DNA from: a bacterium
GTDB taxonomy: Bacteria; Patescibacteriota; Minisyncoccia; Ryanbacterales; GWA2-47-10b
Reading direction: 5' to 3'
Assembly (NCBI GenBank): GCA_027624915.1
Contig: JAQBTR010000001.1
Span: forward strand, 35,609 to 99,608
Length of the DNA: 64,000 nt
The translations under genes were made by a program, and so were the position numbers. The notes beneath the pieces are model-generated. The model had not been told where the DNA came from. It saw nothing but the letters and a program-made list of their open reading frames with translations, and searched no databases. This document shows, piece after piece, positions 5,477-58,820 of this stretch (its first letter is position 1; the number at the start of each line of letters is the position of its first letter).

Positions 5477-5902
5477 ATGGCACTTTTTGACTTCTTAAAG
5501 AAAAAAGAATATCAGGAAAAAATTGCACAACGTGCTGAGTCTAAAAAGGCACCTATTGAGAAAGCTACTGAGGCCCCAAAGGCCAAAGAAGCAGAGGAAA
5601 GGGTACCAGCTAGCTTGGAAGCACAGGTAAGTACCGAGGGTGTTTTGATAACCCCACACATTACAGAGCGAGCACGCGCTTTGGCTGAGATTGGGCAATA
5701 TGTTTTTCGAATTAACCGAGACGCAAACAAAGCTCAGGTTAAAAAGTCAGTGCAGGGCATGTACGGTGTTAACGTTGAGGGCGTAAAAGTTATTACAGTA
5801 CACGAGAAAAAGCGTCGTAGAGGCTTGACAGAGGGAGTTAAAAAGGGTTATAAAAAGGCGGTTGTAAGCCTTAGAGAGGGTGAAAAAATTGATATCTTTT
5901 AA
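5477..5902 (+). CDS. rplW: 50S ribosomal protein L23 with an N-terminal Lys/Glu-rich extension.
   Basis: C-terminal ...YVFRINRDANKAQVKKSVQGMYGVNVEGVKV... L23 core. Confidence 0.88.
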   Translation: MALFDFLKKKEYQEKIAQRAESKKAPIEKATEAPKAKEAEERVPASLEAQVSTEGVLITPHITERARALAEIGQYVFRINRDANKAQVKKSVQGMYGVNVEGVKVITVHEKKRRRGLTEGVKKGYKKAVVSLREGEKIDIF

Positions 5903-14001: not shown

Positions 14002-14691
14002 ATGGCATTCCCAAAGGCAATCCTCTTCGTTGGCCCACCAGGGTCCGGTAAGGGAACTCAAGCAGATGAAGTTCTCTCACGTTTTGACGGGTTTGTGCTT
14101 TTTGATACGGGACGAGAGATAGAAAAGACAGTTAATGATCCAAAACAGCTCGAGGACCCCGCCATTCGAATGGAGAAAGAAATGTTTGAGAAGGGCGAGC
14201 TTAACACTTCGTCTTGGGTTCAGGACTTGGTGAGAGATGGAATCAAAAGAATCTCAATGTCAGGGCAGGGGGTTATTCTCTCTGGTTCACCACGAACACG
14301 AGAAGAAGCGCAGTTTCTTATACCACTTCTGTTTGAAGTGTATGGAGAGGGTTCAGTTACGGTTTTTCAGCTTTTTGTAAGTGAAGAAACATCAATATTT
14401 AGAAATGGACACAGACGAATTTGCGAAACATGCGGTAGGTCAATAATGTGGTCAGAAGAAAACAAGGAAATTACATTTTGTCCTGTGTGTGGTGGTAAGG
14501 TTATCACGCGCGCACTTGATAAGCCCGAGATTATAAAAGATAGACTCAAGGTGTATAGGCGAAGGACGGAAGCTATCATGCCATTTATACGAGCGCTTGG
14601 GATTTCAATAATTGAAATTAATGGAGAACAGACACCCGATGCCGTGAGTGCGCAAGTTATTGGTACATTAAACGAACTAGCGTCTCATTAA
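14002..14691 (+). CDS. adk: Adenylate kinase with a zinc-binding LID, divergent from canonical forms.
   Basis: P-loop GPPGSGKGTQA; LID CETCG...CPVCGG; located after secY as in the spc operon. Confidence 0.75.
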   Translation: MAFPKAILFVGPPGSGKGTQADEVLSRFDGFVLFDTGREIEKTVNDPKQLEDPAIRMEKEMFEKGELNTSSWVQDLVRDGIKRISMSGQGVILSGSPRTREEAQFLIPLLFEVYGEGSVTVFQLFVSEETSIFRNGHRRICETCGRSIMWSEENKEITFCPVCGGKVITRALDKPEIIKDRLKVYRRRTEAIMPFIRALGISIIEINGEQTPDAVSAQVIGTLNELASH

Positions 14692-14713
14692 ATGAATTTT
14701 ATAATTCATAATC

Positions 14714-14803
14714 CCAAAATTTCGGCTACGACTCATCAGAAATTTTTCAAAGTATCTATGGATATTCCTCAAAATTTTTGATTTCGTCTCACTCAAAATT
14801 TTA
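14714..14803. repeat. Copy A of a ~95-nt intergenic repeat family (the other copies are at 48340-48436 and 50989-51084).
   Basis: Shares aaatttcggctac...aaatttt...tatctatggatatt...tcaaaattttt...cactcaaaattt blocks with copies B and C. Confidence 0.7.
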
Positions 14804-14842
14804 AGATTCTTAATCACAAAATTAAATTAACAAGACACTCAA

Positions 14843-15601
14843 ATGATTATTACAAACCCAAGTGCAATAGAAAATCTTCGCGAGGGCGGTAAAAAACTTG
14901 CTGAAATTTTACGTATGGTGGTTAGTCACGTAAAACCAGGTGTTATGACGATTGAGCTAGATCAGTTAGCAGAAGAAGCAATTTTAAAAGCTGGCGGTCG
15001 CCCATCGTTTAAGAATTATAAGACCGAGGGAACACGAGGTGCATATCCTGCGACCCTCTGTGTTTCACTTAATAATGAAATTGTTCATGGCATTCCAGGT
15101 CGCTATGTAATTAAGGAGGGAGATGTTGTTAGTCTTGATATAGGCATGCAGTACAAACAGATTTTTACTGACACGGCACTAACTGTTTCTGTTGGAGATG
15201 TTGGTGAAGACGTGGAACGTCTAATACGAGCAACAAAAAGGTCTCTTGATGTGGGCATTGAGGCTGCTGGCCCAGATGTTCCTATAGGGACAATTGGTAG
15301 TACAATTCAGAATCACCTAGAAGGAGAGGGTTTTGGTGTTGTTCGAGAGCTTGTTGGACATGGCGTTGGCGCTGATGTACATGAAGAACCAGAAATTCCT
15401 AATTGGGGCACAGAGGGACAGGGAGAAAAACTTGTTCCTGGCATGGTATTAGCGCTCGAACCAATGGCAACGTTGGGTTCTCCAGACGTTTCTCCAAGCG
15501 AAGACGGATGGGTGTGGTCAACGGCTGATGGTAGTATGTCTGCCCATTTTGAACATACAATTTTAATAACTGAAAACGGAAGAGAAATCATAACTAAATG
15601 A
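14843..15601 (+). CDS. map: Methionine aminopeptidase type I.
   Basis: ...VVSLDIGMQYKQIFTD...VGHGVGADVHEEP...EHTILITENG... metal-ligand pattern of MetAP. Confidence 0.93.
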   Translation: MIITNPSAIENLREGGKKLAEILRMVVSHVKPGVMTIELDQLAEEAILKAGGRPSFKNYKTEGTRGAYPATLCVSLNNEIVHGIPGRYVIKEGDVVSLDIGMQYKQIFTDTALTVSVGDVGEDVERLIRATKRSLDVGIEAAGPDVPIGTIGSTIQNHLEGEGFGVVRELVGHGVGADVHEEPEIPNWGTEGQGEKLVPGMVLALEPMATLGSPDVSPSEDGWVWSTADGSMSAHFEHTILITENGREIITK

Positions 15602-48296: not shown

Positions 48297-48339
48297 AAAG
48301 TAGTTGTGGGGCTACTACCAAACTTCATTTCTACCAAAA

Positions 48340-48436
48340 TCTCTAAATTTCGGCTACAACGTGTCAAAAGTTTTTTACCAATACCTATGGCATTAAGCTC
48401 AAAATTTTTGACTACGTTTCGCTCAAAATTTAGAGA
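48340..48436. repeat. Copy B of the ~95-nt intergenic repeat family. Its ends are perfect 10-bp inverted repeats, ctctaaattt / aaatttagag.
   Basis: Aligns by eye with copies A and C; internal tcaaaagtttttt / aaaatttttgac complementarity suggests a long hairpin. Confidence 0.7.
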
Positions 48437-48486
48437 CCCTGCTAACGAAAGCAAGTTTAGGAGTAGCCCCATTGTAGCGTGTATTG

Positions 48487-48515
48487 TCTTTAATCCAAAA
48501 AAACATCCTCGCACG
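48487..48515 (-). terminator. Minus-strand terminator atcctcgca-cgt-tgcgaggat plus T7 on the minus strand, after the oxidoreductase gene.
   Basis: Perfect 9-bp stem; A7 on the plus strand equals a T-run on the minus strand. Confidence 0.65.
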
Positions 48516-48524
48516 TTGCGAGGA

Positions 48525-50165
48525 TTAGAATCGGAGCATTTCGGCTGCTGCATTTCGACCGCAGATTCCCATGACGCCACCACCAGGATGACTAGCCGCT
48601 CCACACAAAAACAGGTTTTTGATTGGAGTTGTATGGTCGGCCCATCCGGCGACAGGTCTAAATGAAAAGAGCTGATGGGGGAGCATTGCCCCCTGAAAGA
48701 TGTTTCCACCAGTAAGACCGTATCTTGCCTCAATGTCAGGTGGCGCGAGCACTTCGCGATGGATGATTGAATTTCTAAATCCAGGTGCATACTGCTCGAT
48801 TTCTTGAGTACACAGATCCCCAAACCATTCGCGCTTATCATCCCACGTTCCGTCTCTTAGCTCGTACGGAGCGTATTGCACAAATATGTTCATGACATGA
48901 TGACCACTTCCTTCAGGTACGAGCGTTTTATCGATACTCGTTGGAAGTGTCATCTCGAGCACGGGTTCGTCGCTTGGATGCCCCATGAGCGCATCATGAT
49001 ATGCTTGCTCTATGTATCTGACATCAGGTGAGATGTGCATCGTACCCATATGGCACTCACCAATCCTGCCACCTGTTGGGAATGCAGTGAATCTTGGAGG
49101 TTCAGAAAGCACAAGATTGATTTTTGCTGATGCGGACGAGTAGTCAATTTTTTCTACTTCCTGTGCGAATAGCACAGGAAGTTCTTTTCGATCAACAAAG
49201 TGTAGAAAGGTATGATTAGCGTCCACGCTTGAAGCAATTTGTCTTGCATTAATGACAGTACCATCTTTGAGTTCGACAGCGCGTGCTTCTCCACCTATGA
49301 CAAAAATTTTGCCGACAGGTGATTCGCGCTTGATATCAACACCCAGGTCAAGACATGTTTTTTTGAGTGCACTGGCCAGTCCGCCCATGCCTCCACGGAC
49401 GTAGCCCCATACTCCACGAGCTCCACCCGCATCTCCCATTACGTGATGCAAGAGTACATAGGCACTACCAGGTGAGGACGGTGGCATGAAGGCGCCAATG
49501 ATGGCGTCTGTTGCGAGCGTTGCTTTGAGTGCATCGGTCTCGAACCATCTATCAAGAATAGGAGTCGCAGCACCTGTCAAAAACCTGATGGCATCCGGAA
49601 CATCATGCCCCAGTGAAATAGCAGACTTAAAGAGGGTAAAGAGTTTACGCGCATCGCGCATTCGTTTTGTGACACCCATCTGACGCCAAAAGTGTCCCAT
49701 TGGTATAATATCGGGAGCCGCCATCTGAATCGCGGGCTCGATTGCATCAGCAATGCGTTCAAGCAATGCTTCGTATGCGGGGTACCTTTCTGCATCAGTT
49801 TTACTAAAGCGCGAAATTTCTTCTTGGTTACGAACCATGTCTGCCCCTAAGATGAGGCTTCGATTATCAAGGAGTGGCGTAAACGAAGATGGTACTCGAG
49901 GTAGGATCTCGAGACCATTTTGCTTAAGTTTGAGACTATCAATGATGTCACTTGGCATGAGACTTAGAACGTATGCGGCAGTTGAGATTTTGTATCCCGG
50001 CCACAACTCTTCAGTTGTCGCCGCACCTCCAAGCACATGACGTCGCTCAAGTACGCAAACCTTCTTACCGGCTTTTGCCAAATAAGCAGCACACACAAGT
50101 CCATTGTGTCCGCCACCAATGATGATCGCGTCGTAGTCATGCTCTTCCATCACGATTCCTTTCAA
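48525..50165 (-). CDS. FAD-dependent oxidoreductase, phytoene desaturase (CrtI)-like / amine-oxidase family.
   Basis: N-terminal dinucleotide fold YDAIIIGGGHNGLVCAAYLAKAGKKVCVLERR; 546 aa; C-terminal ...GAASHPGGGV... Confidence 0.75.
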   Translation of the reverse strand: MKGIVMEEHDYDAIIIGGGHNGLVCAAYLAKAGKKVCVLERRHVLGGAATTEELWPGYKISTAAYVLSLMPSDIIDSLKLKQNGLEILPRVPSSFTPLLDNRSLILGADMVRNQEEISRFSKTDAERYPAYEALLERIADAIEPAIQMAAPDIIPMGHFWRQMGVTKRMRDARKLFTLFKSAISLGHDVPDAIRFLTGAATPILDRWFETDALKATLATDAIIGAFMPPSSPGSAYVLLHHVMGDAGGARGVWGYVRGGMGGLASALKKTCLDLGVDIKRESPVGKIFVIGGEARAVELKDGTVINARQIASSVDANHTFLHFVDRKELPVLFAQEVEKIDYSSASAKINLVLSEPPRFTAFPTGGRIGECHMGTMHISPDVRYIEQAYHDALMGHPSDEPVLEMTLPTSIDKTLVPEGSGHHVMNIFVQYAPYELRDGTWDDKREWFGDLCTQEIEQYAPGFRNSIIHREVLAPPDIEARYGLTGGNIFQGAMLPHQLFSFRPVAGWADHTTPIKNLFLCGAASHPGGGVMGICGRNAAAEMLRF

Positions 50166-50717: not shown

Positions 50718-50954
50718 ATGAAGAAATTAACATGTGTTGATCTTGGTGGTCCTGAGGATTGCCCAGCAGAGTTTGAGGCAGGTACGTTTGATGACATGGG
50801 CGAAAAGTGTAAGTCTCATGTCATGGAAAGGTTCCAGGCAGGAGATGAGGCTCACACGACAGCAATGAACAAGATGAAGAGTGCAACGACCGAACAACAA
50901 CAAGCGATAATGGAGGGGTATCGCAAGAAGTTCCAAGAAACTCCAGACGAGTAA
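50718..50954 (+). CDS. Small protein, DUF1059-like.
   Basis: MKKLTCVDLGGPEDCPAEFEAGTFDDMGEKCKSHVMERF... resembles the C.D.G..C...EEL...H pattern of DUF1059. Confidence 0.4.
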   Translation: MKKLTCVDLGGPEDCPAEFEAGTFDDMGEKCKSHVMERFQAGDEAHTTAMNKMKSATTEQQQAIMEGYRKKFQETPDE

Positions 50955-50988
50955 AGGGACTACTTCAAAACTCCACTTCTGACAAAAC

Positions 50989-51084
50989 TCCTAAATTTCA
51001 GTTGCAGCTAGGTAAAAATTTTTCATCAATACCTCCGGCATTAGATTCAAAATTTTTACCTTCGCTTCACTCGAAATTTAAAAT
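50989..51084. repeat. Copy C of the ~95-nt intergenic repeat family.
   Basis: ctaaatttcagttgcagctaggtaaaaatttttcatcaatacctccggcattagattcaaaatttttacc...cactcgaaattta aligns with copies A and B. Confidence 0.7.
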
Positions 51085-51119
51085 TTTTACCAAGAAAGCG
51101 AGCTTTGAAATAATCCCAT

Positions 51120-51152
51120 AAAAAACTCTAGAGTTAACTCTAGAGTTTTTTT
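51120..51152. terminator. Bidirectional terminator aaaaaa-ctctagag-ttaa-ctctagag-ttttttt.
   Basis: Perfect stem flanked by an A6 and a T7 run. Confidence 0.7.
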
Positions 51153-52008: not shown

Positions 52009-52351
52009 TGGTGGAGACGGGCGGAATCGAACCGCCGTCCGAAGAGTAATATAGAAAGAATTTGTTACAAGCTTGTCTAGTTTTTAAGGCTAGAGGTTTG
52101 CTCGATGGGGTGTCGCGATACCGTATCGAGCAGTAGTATCGCCAAGCTCGAATTTATAACACCGGTTACCAGACAGTCGAGCGCCAACTGGGCCGATGGC
52201 CTATGCTATTTAAGCGTAGGCGGGTACGAGCTCTCGCTCGCCAAATAAGTTTGCACTTATCAAGTACACGGACAGTTTTGAAAGAGTTAGCCGTGTCGGC
52301 TCTTGCTTGATCCCTAATATAAAAGCTTCCCCGTCGAAGCCTAGCGTCCCC
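52009..52351 (-). ncRNA. ssrA: tmRNA (transfer-messenger RNA, SsrA), ~343 nt with an encoded CCA end. Predicted tag reading frame resumes at GCA-AAC and reads ANLFGERELVPAYA-stop (UAA at 52210-52212).
   Basis: 5' end GGGGACGCUAGGCUUCGACGGGG (compare E. coli GGGGCUGAUUCUGGAUUCGACGGG). 3' end GGCGGUUCGAUUCCGCCCGUCUCCACCA (T-arm + acceptor + CCA). A 7-bp acceptor stem can form with one G-U pair. Adjacent to smpB. Confidence 0.85.
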
Positions 52352-55502: not shown

Positions 55503-58500
55503 ATGCATGATGAGCATGAGGTCCTTGGATTTTGGGCCCAGCGGAAGATATTCGAGAAGAGTATCAAACAACGCGGGGCGAAAGCCAAGCGTTTTGTTTT
55601 TTTTGAGGGTCCACCATATGCCAATGGTCTCCCTGGTATACATCACGTAGAAGCACGTGCTTTTAAGGATGTTGTTGCGCGCTACAAGACATTGCGTGGT
55701 TTTCGTGTTGAGCGTAGAGCTGGATGGGATACTCATGGTTTGCCAACGGAGATGGCAGTAGAAAAGAAGCTTGGCATCAAATCCAAGCGTGAGATTGAAG
55801 AAAGGATAGGTGTTAAGGCCTTTGTTCAAGCAGCTAGAGAGGACGTGTTTTTCTATAAAAGAGAGTGGGAGCGCATGACCGAGCGAATGGGGTATTGGCT
55901 CGATTTTAAAAATGCCTATGTCACCATGGATAACTCATACATTGAGTCTTTGTGGTGGATTATGAAAGAGTTTTGGGACAAAAAGCTTTTCTATGAGGAC
56001 AGAAAGGTTTTGCCGTGGTGCTCTAGGTGTGGAACGGGACTTTCTACACATGAAGTAGCGCAGGGTTACAAAAAAATTACAGAAACATCTGTTTATGTAC
56101 GATTTTATCTCAAAACACGCAGAGGAGTTCTCTTAGTGTGGACAACAACACCATGGACGCTTCCTGCCAACGTGGCAGCGGCTGTTGACCCCAAGGCAAC
56201 ATACGTAACCATTGATGACCGAGGCGAGAAGTTTATTTTGCATGAGAAGTTGGCGTCCAAGCTATTCCCTAGTGTTGAGCCACAGTTCAAAGAAAAGGGT
56301 AGCGACCTAGTTGGTCTTACGTACGACCCGCCATTTGGTCACGATGACATTCCTTATAAAGTAGTAGGTGCTGATTTTGTTTCAGACAAAGATGGAACGG
56401 GTATCGTACATATTGCACCAGCCTTCGGTGAGGACGATATGCGTGTTGCTAAAGATGAGGAGTTACCCGTTTTGATGACGGTAGATGACGAAGGAAAATT
56501 TAACGATGAAGTTCCACAATGGAAGGGACAGTTTGTAAAAGATGCTGACCCAGACATAATCAAAGACCTAAAGCAAAAGGGTATTTTGTGGCGCGAAGAA
56601 GAGTACGAGCATGATTATCCATTTTGTTGGAGATGTGATTCTCCGCTTATTTATCTAGCGCGCAAGTCCTGGTGGGTGAAAGTGAGCAGTATGCGCCAGC
56701 AATTAGTTGAGGCAAACAAAGAAATTAATTGGTACCCAGAATATCTCAAGGAGGGTCGCTTTGGACAGTGGATTAGTGAAGCAAAAGACTGGGCGTTTTC
56801 CAGAGAACGATATTGGGGGACACCAATTCCTGTTTGGCAGTGTACCGAATGTAACAATTCTGAAATGTTTGGTTCGGTAGAAGAGATGAAAAAGCGTACA
56901 AGGCCATCATTAAATAATTACTTTTTGATGCGTCATGGACTTGCCAAGTCAAATATGCTTGATATTGGTGTTGGCAATCCAAAAGACGATGTGTGGGGGA
57001 TTACCCCAAAGGGAAAACTTCAGGTTAAAAAAGCTATAACAAAACTTAAAAAAGAAGATATTGATTTGGTTATTTCTTCTGATCTTTTACGTACAAAAGA
57101 AACAGCACAGATGATTGCTAAGGAATTACATGTTCCTATTTTGTATGATGAGGATTTACGCGAGATGCAGTTTGGAGACTATGAGCGTAAAAATTCTCGC
57201 CCAATTATGGATGAGTGGGGTTTGACTGCCGAGCGACTCGATATGAAACTTCCTGGCATGGGCGCCGAATCATGGAACGATATTAAAGCACGTATGAATA
57301 AAGTCTTTAAGCGACTTGAGGAACTACATAAAAATAAAAATATTGTCCTTGTTGGCCACGGTGACCCACACTGGTTTTTGGAAGCTATTATGACGGGCTC
57401 ATCTGATCCAGAGGGTATTCCCGATGTTGCCGTCTATCCAACCAAGGGAGATTTTCATAAGGTTACACCTGTTTCTCTCCCTCGAGATGATAAGGGTAAT
57501 CTAGACTTGCACAAGCCTTTTATTGATGAGGTTAAAATCGATTGTACTCGCTGTCGAGCACCCATGCGCCGCACAATTGGAGTAGCTGATGTGTGGTTTG
57601 ATTCGGGCTCTATGCCGTATGCCGCATGGCACTATCCATTTGAGAACAAAGCACAAATCGACAAAAAGATTTCATTCCCAGCAGATTATATAGCAGAGGC
57701 AATCGACCAGACGCGTGGATGGTTTTATAACCTACTATCTGTATCTGTGCTCCTTGGAAAAGGTGCTCCATATAAAAATGTAATTTCACTCGGTCACGTA
57801 CTCGACAAAAAAGGTAAGAAAATGTCTAAGTCAAAGGGTAATGGAGTCAACCCAATGGATCTCTTCGAAAAGTATGGTGCCGATGCCGTTCGATGGTACT
57901 TCTTTACGGTGAATCAACCAGAGGATTCTAAGGTATTTGATGAACTTGATATACAAAAAGCAAAACGAAACTTTCTTGATCTATTAACAAACTCGGCCAA
58001 GTTCTACGAGATGTATAAAACAAGCAAGCGTACCACCAAGAAACACGTCCTTGATGAGTGGGTGCTTGCTCGTCTAGGCGAAGTTAGAGAAGACATGACC
58101 AAAAAAATGGATGAGTATGATATTGTTGGGGCCGCACGAGAACTCGAAAAATTTGTAGCAGAAGATATTTCTAGATGGTATTTGCGTCGTTCGCGTGAGC
58201 GTATGCGGACCGGACAAGGAGTGTCCATCCTACGAACGGTCTTGCTAGAGACGGCAATTCTTGCATCGCCCTTTGTACCGTTCACTTCAGAGATTCTCTA
58301 TACTTCTCTTGGTGGCAAATCAAAGAGCGTTCATTTAAGCGATTGGCCAGAAAAACGAGCTTCCACACGCAAACTATTAACTGACATGCAAGAAGTACGA
58401 ATGTTGGCAGCACGAGGGCTCGAATTGCGTTCCCGTTCGGGATTAAAAATTAGACAGCCCCTTGCATCATTCTCTGTAAAATCACGAAAGTTAAAAGAGA

Positions 58501-58820
58501 AAAAATTGTTAAATGTGCTTGCCGAAGAGCTTAACGTAAAAAATATTCTTATTGGTAAAAAAATAAAGGAGGACGTAGAGCTCGATACTGTTCTTACCCC
58601 AATCTTGAAAGAGGAGGGTGAGGTACGAGAGACTATTAGATTAGTACAGAACATGAGAAAGGAAGAGGGGCTTCATCCAAGAGACCTTATTATGCTTACT
58701 TTATCTGGAACATTTTCAAAGGTATCACTCAAAAGTATTAAGGATGGCGTGCATGCAAAAACGGTTACATTAAAAAATAAGACTGTGAAAGTCGAGATAC
58801 ATGGGATTACAAAAGTTTAA
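55503..58820 (+). CDS. ileS: Isoleucyl-tRNA synthetase (KMSKS type) carrying a ~190-aa in-frame histidine-phosphatase (PGAM-like) domain at aa ~466-660.
   Basis: HIGH region PPYANGLPGIHH; editing domain TTTPWTLPAN...GTGIVHIAPAFGEDD; KMSKS = KKMSKSKGN. Insert carries LMRHGLAKSN (RHG motif) and ...IVLVGHGDPHW... (second catalytic His). Confidence 0.9.
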   Translation: MHDEHEVLGFWAQRKIFEKSIKQRGAKAKRFVFFEGPPYANGLPGIHHVEARAFKDVVARYKTLRGFRVERRAGWDTHGLPTEMAVEKKLGIKSKREIEERIGVKAFVQAAREDVFFYKREWERMTERMGYWLDFKNAYVTMDNSYIESLWWIMKEFWDKKLFYEDRKVLPWCSRCGTGLSTHEVAQGYKKITETSVYVRFYLKTRRGVLLVWTTTPWTLPANVAAAVDPKATYVTIDDRGEKFILHEKLASKLFPSVEPQFKEKGSDLVGLTYDPPFGHDDIPYKVVGADFVSDKDGTGIVHIAPAFGEDDMRVAKDEELPVLMTVDDEGKFNDEVPQWKGQFVKDADPDIIKDLKQKGILWREEEYEHDYPFCWRCDSPLIYLARKSWWVKVSSMRQQLVEANKEINWYPEYLKEGRFGQWISEAKDWAFSRERYWGTPIPVWQCTECNNSEMFGSVEEMKKRTRPSLNNYFLMRHGLAKSNMLDIGVGNPKDDVWGITPKGKLQVKKAITKLKKEDIDLVISSDLLRTKETAQMIAKELHVPILYDEDLREMQFGDYERKNSRPIMDEWGLTAERLDMKLPGMGAESWNDIKARMNKVFKRLEELHKNKNIVLVGHGDPHWFLEAIMTGSSDPEGIPDVAVYPTKGDFHKVTPVSLPRDDKGNLDLHKPFIDEVKIDCTRCRAPMRRTIGVADVWFDSGSMPYAAWHYPFENKAQIDKKISFPADYIAEAIDQTRGWFYNLLSVSVLLGKGAPYKNVISLGHVLDKKGKKMSKSKGNGVNPMDLFEKYGADAVRWYFFTVNQPEDSKVFDELDIQKAKRNFLDLLTNSAKFYEMYKTSKRTTKKHVLDEWVLARLGEVREDMTKKMDEYDIVGAARELEKFVAEDISRWYLRRSRERMRTGQGVSILRTVLLETAILASPFVPFTSEILYTSLGGKSKSVHLSDWPEKRASTRKLLTDMQEVRMLAARGLELRSRSGLKIRQPLASFSVKSRKLKEKKLLNVLAEELNVKNILIGKKIKEDVELDTVLTPILKEEGEVRETIRLVQNMRKEEGLHPRDLIMLTLSGTFSKVSLKSIKDGVHAKTVTLKNKTVKVEIHGITKV

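Follow-up and report, generated by a model that had tools for sequence, protein, structure and literature searches.

A palindromic intergenic repeat of Patescibacteria with features of a miniature inverted-repeat transposable element

Three copies of a palindromic repeat in one window

The window analysed here is a 64-kb stretch of contig JAQBTR010000001.1 from a metagenome-assembled genome (MAG) of the Patescibacteria, the Candidate Phyla Radiation (CPR). Among its genes are the S10-spc cluster of ribosomal proteins, secY, adk, map, obg, the transfer-messenger RNA (tmRNA) gene and several aminoacyl-tRNA synthetases. The nearest other relatives of its Map protein are from Patescibacteria, at 63% identity or less. 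Three of its intergenic segments, which we call copies A, B and C, hold the repeat that is the subject of this paper. Each is a near-complete palindrome of 159–163 nt that forms a single long hairpin. We have good confidence that the three are copies of a palindromic, non-coding, non-autonomous transposon of the MITE (miniature inverted-repeat transposable element) type.

The initial annotation of this DNA had proposed that the three segments were homologous, and this was borne out. A MAFFT alignment of the copies has a mean column identity of 80%, copies B and C share 74% identity across an ungapped stretch of 125 nt, and each arm of copy A matches copy B at 78–85% (the last two by a repeat finder). 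An nhmmer profile built from the three copies found exactly three members in the window, with E values on the order of 1e-27 to 1e-33 (7.5e-33 for B, 1.4e-29 for C and 8.8e-27 for A); the remaining matches were the reverse strands of the same copies and noise, all with E>1. Chance similarity between AT-rich sequences is excluded. The size of about 95 nt first given to the element describes only its cores. The similarity seen beyond the 5' side of that core in copies B and C proved to be part of the longer element, and a matching 3' extension is also present. The closing ends read GGG(G/A)CTACT at one side and AGTAG(C/T)CCC or similar at the other. All three copies stand in the same register on the + strand of the window; we refer to this orientation as P and to its reverse complement as M, and M is the better-folding strand throughout.

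Copy A (approximately 14680–14838, M on the minus strand, about 159 nt) fills the spacer between adk and map. Its left end covers the final adk codons and the stop codon (14689–14691), and its right end falls 4 nt short of the map ATG (14843). We defined its extent by an arm length equal to those of copies B and C and by a 13-bp outer stem, which takes in the last adk codons and the stop. Copy B (48308–48470, M on the minus strand, 163 nt, ends GGGGCTACT...AGTAGCCCC) sits between the terminator of an oxidoreductase gene and the start of obg (ATG 48296, minus strand), so placed that its better-folding strand is the obg mRNA-sense strand. Copy C (50956–51117, M on the minus strand, 162 nt, ends GGGACTACT...AATAATCCC) begins 2 nt past the stop of a 78-aa open reading frame (ORF; 50718–50954), and its right end abuts a bidirectional terminator-like hairpin. 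Pfam confirmed the genes named at first for copies A (adk and map) and B (obg and an FAD/amine oxidoreductase). The DUF1059 gene named beside copy C was not confirmed, as the 78-aa ORF to its left has no Pfam match.

Within the copies, a conserved core of the right arm lies at 14769–14801 (+) in copy A and reads TCAAAATTTTT-N13-CTCAAAATTT, or AAAUUUUGAG...AAAAAUUUUGA on the minus strand. The same block recurs at 48399–48431 in copy B and at 51047–51079 in copy C. Each arm holds two to three motifs of the form AAATTT(Y)GAG / AAAATTTT, and the AAATTT and AAAATTTT tracts repeat at spacings of about 10 and about 23 nt. The 10-bp inverted repeats of copy B that had been taken for its termini (ctctaaattt/aaatttagag) do exist, but they are internal to the stem. 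The only ORF within the copies is a spurious 39-aa one with a TTG start in copy C; copies across the family are 159–190 nt long and non-coding.

Family members beyond the window

We scanned one genome per species, together with metagenome contigs, with a pattern of three conserved blocks and filtered the matches with an iterated profile. In outside sequences the pattern required CAAAATTTTT, CTCNAAATTT and AAATTT. This search for copies in other genomes, which the initial annotation had recommended, yielded about 20 further unique members, several of them with target-site duplications. Their hosts include the Patescibacteria MAGs H52-bin123, H41-bin027, MAG221 and GFS_5529 and two MAGs labelled as Saccharibacteria; other members lie on one contig binned as Nanoarchaeia and on groundwater and other metagenome contigs.

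The contig binned as Nanoarchaeia (L030, DATJQC010000109.1, labelled Candidatus Nanoarchaeia archaeon) is 3.7 kb long and assigned to a DPANN archaeon, and it carries a clear member. The neighbours of the element there are five small membrane proteins, paralogs of one another and 114–162 aa long, and a near-identical element occurs on metagenome contigs L137 and L153. Either this is a mis-binned Patescibacteria contig or the element has spread across domains.

Of the 118 pattern matches in metagenomes, most arose by chance, fell in one conserved coding region or were simple tandem arrays. The arrays have a period of about 20–30 nt and a unit containing CTCAAAATTT(TT), as in the core of the element (L048, L060, L088, L095, L099, L105, L111, L115 and L126). 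They are probably unrelated satellites caught by the pattern. In viral contigs the loose three-block pattern gave chance matches only, as did a second viral scan with a pattern of the ends, and blastn against plasmids and phages found no family match. On these searches we rejected a phage or plasmid origin. The element also had no blastn match in Escherichia coli genomes, plasmids or phages, and we likewise rejected homology with repeats known from E. coli (ERIC and REP, for example).

The genes beside the copies are unrelated to one another. They are housekeeping genes, for ribonucleotide reductase, a PilB-type ATPase, SMC, ParB, OMP decarboxylase, a solute-binding protein, VanW, GH130, PEP synthase and a thioredoxin-reductase-like protein. 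All four arrangements of flanking ORFs were seen, including copies between convergent genes. Unrelated neighbours and varied orientations led us to reject a leader or riboswitch of a particular gene. When flank GC skew was oriented to the P strand of the element, it was positive at 12 loci and negative at 11. Thus, the orientation of the element is not tied to replication or to the dominant direction of transcription. The inconsistent orientation described at the outset holds relative to genes; in the window itself the copies share one register.

Ends, target-site duplications and the insertion between adk and map

In MAG221, similarity among five near-identical copies breaks off sharply at GGGACTG(C/T)CGCC...GGCG(G/A)CAGTCCC (element ends GGGACTGCCGCCGAATGCC...GGCATTCGGCGGCAGTCCC). 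Just outside these ends we found perfect 5-bp direct repeats at three loci (GTATA at L032, TTATT at L035 and ATTGA at L037) and a 7-bp duplication, TTTAAAT/TTTAAAT, at L038; L036 has no clear flanking duplication. Another locus, L074, has a perfect ATATA/ATATA duplication. Altogether, 11 elements have well-defined GGGRC...GYCCC ends, and four of them carry a perfect 5-bp duplication and one a 7-bp duplication. We estimate that a perfect 5-bp match would arise by chance in AT-rich DNA in about 0.2–0.3% of elements, and the observed count is far above this.

In the window, copy C is bordered by a candidate duplication, GTAAA on the left (50951–50955, which holds the TAA stop of the upstream ORF) and ATAAA on the right (51118–51122), matching at four of five positions. 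The flanks of copy B read TTGTG and TTGTA, offset by 2 nt. At copy A, AAATGA occurs at 14690–14695 and at 14841–14846; the left one lies within the predicted outer stem, and we did not count the pair as a duplication. Given the ATGA overlap seen in relatives (below), an ancestral junction reading TAAATGA could have been duplicated over 6 bp to give this pair, but this reading is ambiguous.

The two closest relatives on long contigs (L161 and L163) are fully syntenic with the window, from the ribosomal proteins through secY-adk-map-ruvX-GT2-galT-tpiA-pgk. In both, adk shares 4 nt (ATGA) with map, and 20 kb of sequence contains no member of the family. The window has a 151-nt spacer at this junction, and copy A occupies it. 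Copy A is thus a lineage-specific insertion that parted two formerly coupled genes; with relatives this distant (62–63% Map identity), the comparison is not a strict empty-site comparison.

MAG221 holds at least five full copies and two partial ones. On contig L036, a copy spans 448–637, the contig starts inside another copy (1–139), and a solo right-arm half element lies in inverted orientation at 5768–5837, 5.2 kb apart. We rejected a composite transposon here because the DNA between the inverted copies carries thioredoxin-reductase-like and PEP synthase genes and because one 'copy' is only half an element. The element probably breaks assemblies and undergoes deletions. Four of the five loci in MAG221 (L035, L036, L037 and L038, with L032 as the exception) also share a GC-rich insert of 27 nt within the apical loop, TACCCCAAGGGCACTTCCTACGGGGCG, which is itself a small hairpin. 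The insert either is a mini-insertion nested in the element or marks a subfamily.

A covarying hairpin

The long hairpin predicted for the element is real, and it covaries. The computed RNA minimum free energies for the M and P strands were −55.5 versus −26.9 kcal/mol for copy A (folded as 14665–14850), −79.3 versus −57.0 kcal/mol for copy B and −71.8 versus −42.5 kcal/mol for copy C. The M-strand RNA folds of copies B and C have z-scores of −10 to −12. With DNA parameters, copy B gave −37.5 kcal/mol for M versus −31.1 for P (z −8.2).

We aligned 19 M-strand sequences (alignment A2) and derived the structure with RNAalifold. The consensus is one hairpin of 44 pairs, with compensatory double changes in 31 of them. 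Standard pairs fill 89.9% of the cells, compared with 73.4% in column shuffles, and none of 500 shuffles reached the observed value on any of five measures. When partners were slid by 1–3 columns as a control, 30–55% of the cells paired. The covariation proves selection for, or inheritance of, complementarity between the arms; alone it cannot separate an RNA from a DNA palindrome.

Several blocks are invariant in the 19 sequences: AAAUUU(Y)GAG containing a bulged A opposite (A/G)CC(G/A)AAAUUU; AAAAAUUUUGA near the apex; and AAAAUUUU. For sequences from outside the window this invariance is partly forced by the search pattern, and it is unbiased only in the three window copies, where the blocks are identical.

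One strand carries most of the G·U pairs

The M strand is the more stable one in all 23 unique copies, by 8–33 kcal/mol. The wobble pairs differ between the strands as well. Main hairpins contain 144 G·U pairs on M and 20 on P, where A·C oppositions of the M strand are counted as G·U on P; over all pairs of alignment A2 the counts are 78 and 14. As the copies are related, these counts are not independent. Yet the bias is also present in helices that differ in sequence between subfamilies, the variable outer helix H1 (M 28, P 8) and the variable apical helix H4 (M 20, P 2), and so it is not merely inherited from one ancestor. In A2, 89.9% of cells pair on M and 82.2% on P. For copy B the strand asymmetry amounts to 22 kcal/mol with RNA parameters versus 6 with DNA parameters.

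Because the copies are oriented at random relative to both skew and genes, strand-biased mutation is an unlikely cause of the asymmetry; the lack of any skew correlation (12 positive, 11 negative) led us to reject it. The bias suggests a constraint on a single-stranded M strand, RNA or single-stranded DNA (ssDNA) and more naturally RNA.

Other features near the copies

Terminator-like structures adjoin two of the copies and lie outside the element. At the end of the oxidoreductase gene, an intrinsic-terminator-like hairpin (48505–48525, minus strand) consists of a 9-bp stem followed by GTTTTTTT; in the minus sense it stands just upstream of copy B. Beside copy C, an A-run, a perfect 12-bp stem and a T-run (aaaaaactctagagttaactctagagttttttt, 51120–51152) form a bidirectional terminator-like structure that folds separately. 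In the stretch 48471–48504 (minus strand), which separates the oxidoreductase terminator from the 5' end of the M strand of copy B, there is a weak promoter-like sequence, TTGGAT-16-TACAAT, which was below threshold in a promoter scan. Transcription from it, if any, would put the 5' end of the obg mRNA at roughly the first base of the copy B hairpin.

Rfam 15 was searched with the window, and only the tmRNA reached its gathering score; nothing relevant appeared at E<=10, which led us to reject a known RNA family. The one hit overlapping the element at E<=10 was a sub-threshold match to STnc430 (37.4 bits versus 47), across the right arm of copy C and the neighbouring terminator. The tmRNA gene itself (52009–52351, minus strand, 98 bits in Rfam, also found by ARAGORN) lies about 0.9 kb from copy C and encodes the tag peptide ANLFGERELVPAYA. 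Farther along, 55503–58820 (+) encodes a 1105-aa class I tRNA synthetase of the isoleucyl/valyl type (tRNA-synt_1 and Anticodon_1). A complete His_Phos_1 domain (residues 474–631, E 8e-30) is inserted inside its catalytic region, an unusual fusion.

Discussion

The best explanation of these repeats is a MITE family of Patescibacteria that had not been described before and that is, by its kind, ordinary selfish DNA. The element is short and non-coding, it has terminal inverted repeats and flanking duplications, and its dispersed copies differ in presence and absence between genomes. The initial annotation had called it a MITE- or REP-like mobile repeat. The MITE half of that description stands, on sharp ends, 5-bp target-site duplications, the insertion between adk and map and the unrelated neighbours. 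The REP-like half does not, for the element is too long and AT-rich and makes duplications.

Four observations weigh against this interpretation. We found no transposase or autonomous parent with the family ends among the ten largest ORFs of the window, in the loci around other copies or in the viral, phage and plasmid collections; a cognate autonomous element that encodes a transposase is thus missing from the sequences searched, which is absence of evidence only. Clean duplications are confined to young copies: copies A and B show ambiguous or degenerate ones, and most older copies elsewhere have none. Conservation is higher in the interior motifs than at the extreme termini, which is the opposite of many MITEs, although for outside sequences this is partly an effect of the search pattern. 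Finally, simple double-strand cut-and-paste transposition does not predict a consistent strand asymmetry, and the asymmetry is unexplained.

As a rival explanation, the element might move through a single-stranded hairpin of the M strand and not by duplex cut-and-paste, either as ssDNA handled by an HUH or other single-strand enzyme or as a reverse-transcribed RNA integrated at a staggered nick. This would fit the greater stability of M in every unique copy and the excess of G·U pairs on it, including in the variable helices. It would also fit an orientation unrelated to flank GC skew or gene direction, which makes mutational strand bias unlikely, as well as the far larger asymmetry with RNA than with DNA energies, the bulged A of AAAUUUYGAG and the differences between arms that are kept family-wide, and duplications that vary in length between 5 and 7 bp. 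However, IS200/IS605, IS91, REP/RAYT and attC elements make no target duplication and have sequence-specific targets or a replication-linked orientation bias. The family has duplications and no orientation bias, unlike the known bacterial single-strand transposons and attC. The loci around the copies and the window's ten largest ORFs showed neither a reverse transcriptase nor an HUH protein, and in ordinary transposons the left and right ends commonly differ. We therefore judge a single-strand intermediate unlikely. Alternatively, the copies could be genes for a multi-copy structured small RNA encoded on the minus strand, whose hairpin serves, for example, as an RNase III substrate or a protein sponge. 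The strong covarying hairpin, its folding z-scores, the strand-specific enrichment of G·U pairs (typical of RNA) and the persistence of the family across distant Patescibacteria would all agree with this. But the element matches no Rfam family, and its conservation begins at the first paired base and stops at the paired termini, which leaves no conserved promoter or terminator and no room for one. Promoter and terminator scans were at chance level, two of the three window copies run antisense to the operon around them, and elsewhere the copies show mixed orientations. The target duplications, near-identical copies within one genome, half-copies and lineage-specific insertion are signs of mobility. 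The free-standing small RNA that had been offered as a second possibility is, on this evidence, highly improbable.

Lower still we place a role as regulatory DNA of the host, be it a portable promoter, a bidirectional terminator or a bent-DNA or protein-binding site made of phased AnTn tracts. Some copies have a right arm resembling AAAATTT-TTGAC/TTTAC-N17/18-TAnnAT (copy C matches at 9 of 12 positions as TTTACC-18-TAAAAT), copies A and B each stop a few bases before a start codon, and the spacing of the AAATTT and AAAATTTT tracts could be read as phasing. Yet the −35-like hexamer is free to vary and covaries with its pairing partner instead of being held TTGACA-like, and the promoter scan gave no site at copy A and a total near the shuffled expectation. 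The hairpin has no T-run after it, and some copies lie between convergent genes. The early argument against a simple promoter was thus sound, and consensus scans at chance level dispose of a terminator as well; we give this explanation almost no credence. A broader proposition, which we find rather doubtful, is that propagation needs the single-stranded M form (RNA or ssDNA, a hairpin of about 75 bp that contains wobble pairs) and yet ends in integration with a staggered-cut duplication, or else that a function of the M-strand hairpin RNA sustains the family across deep Patescibacteria lineages. We know of no described bacterial insertion-sequence family that combines dependence on a single strand with a short staggered-cut duplication.

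Among known systems, the architecture of the MITE-type element proposed here is closest to that of Correia/NEMIS (Neisseria), ERIC (enterobacteria) and RUP (Streptococcus pneumoniae), which are MITEs palindromic over their whole length. These families (for reviews of bacterial MITEs, see PMC2229807, PMC3184786, PMC10969869) and our element are non-coding intergenic repeats of 100–200 nt with inverted ends, target duplications and both orientations; they give long RNA hairpins when co-transcribed and occur inside operons and near start codons. Our element differs from them in that its duplication is about 5 bp and AT-rich rather than TA, in that its hosts are several deep lineages of Patescibacteria rather than one genus or family, and in that its interior is better kept than its termini. 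It also has a consistent wobble bias of one strand. To our knowledge, no such bias has been reported for those families.

AT-rich duplications are also a property of TIMEs, which insert in AT-rich DNA with duplications of 5 or 6 bp such as AAATT, AAATA and AATAT; TIMEs are 262 bp long, with 38-bp inverted repeats homologous to Tn5563a/Tn5044, and are usually single-copy (PMC4133298). The duplications of our element are likewise AT-rich and mostly 5 bp (GTATA, TTATT, ATTGA and ATATA, with TTTAAAT at 7 bp). Unlike TIMEs, it is palindromic throughout and multi-copy. Several subfamilies start with GGGG or GGGA, like the ends of the Tn3 family; by eye, only the first 4–6 bases (GGGG/GGGGTC) are alike and nothing beyond them. 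We found no Tn3-type transposase among the ten largest ORFs of the 64-kb window. The duplications and ends recall Tn3 derivatives, but membership of the Tn3 family would be a conjecture from this comparison.

REPs make no target duplications and co-occur with a RAYT gene. They are described as GC-rich hairpins of 20–40 nt with a GTAG/CGTC tag (PMC3733652). REP/REPIN-RAYT systems and the ends of IS200/IS605 are repeated extragenic palindromes that are recognized in folded form and in a strand-specific way, which would fit the asymmetry seen here. Membership of either group is nevertheless ruled out by the duplications, by an AT-rich hairpin of about 160 nt, by the 12/11 split in skew, which leaves no skew-linked orientation, and by the lack of any RAYT or other HUH gene beside the copies examined. 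The attC sites of integrons have R''/R' core sites (RYYYAAC...GTTRRRY) that end an imperfect hairpin of 57–141 nt at cassette boundaries. We excluded them because the ends here are GGGRC...GYCCC and because the copies lie between housekeeping genes and not in cassette arrays. TIGR-Tas arrays are tandem, whereas nothing is tandem here.

Based on these results, we propose a model for the MITE family. A transposase encoded elsewhere would act in trans on the element ends, with the AAATTT(Y)GAG / AAAATTTT motifs as its putative binding sites. It would make a staggered cut of about 5 bp in AT-rich intergenic DNA, and repair would leave the short direct duplication. Host read-through of any copy would then produce an RNA that folds into the long hairpin. 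As pairing reaches the ends of the element and conservation stops there, an RNA with the full hairpin could arise only by such read-through and not from an internal promoter. In the obg leader (copy B), the sense strand would be the strongly folding one (predicted at −79 kcal/mol), and about 12 nt would separate the hairpin from the start codon. Within the adk-map operon, where copy A lies, the sense strand would have the weaker fold (−27 kcal/mol). Effects of these hairpins on mRNA stability, processing and translation are plausible. We also hypothesize that the insertion of copy A ended the coupling of adk to map and that its sequence may provide the final adk codons.

Our literature searches turned up no account of MITEs or of hairpin repeats for Patescibacteria, and the main text of a 2024 survey of MITEs in 183,232 prokaryotic genomes does not mention the group. 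These bacteria have tiny, streamlined genomes, and their mobile DNA has been little described. A hairpin MITE common to distant CPR lineages, including the two MAGs labelled as Saccharibacteria, is a useful marker of horizontal exchange. It likely causes assembly breaks, as seen in copies at contig ends in MAG221, and it is a source of false calls of 'conserved structured RNA' in comparative screens. The expression of core genes may be affected, since a translationally coupled adk/map pair has been split and a −79 kcal/mol hairpin stands in the obg leader. If it is functional, the strict wobble bias of one strand could indicate a mechanism of transposition or one that operates at the level of RNA.

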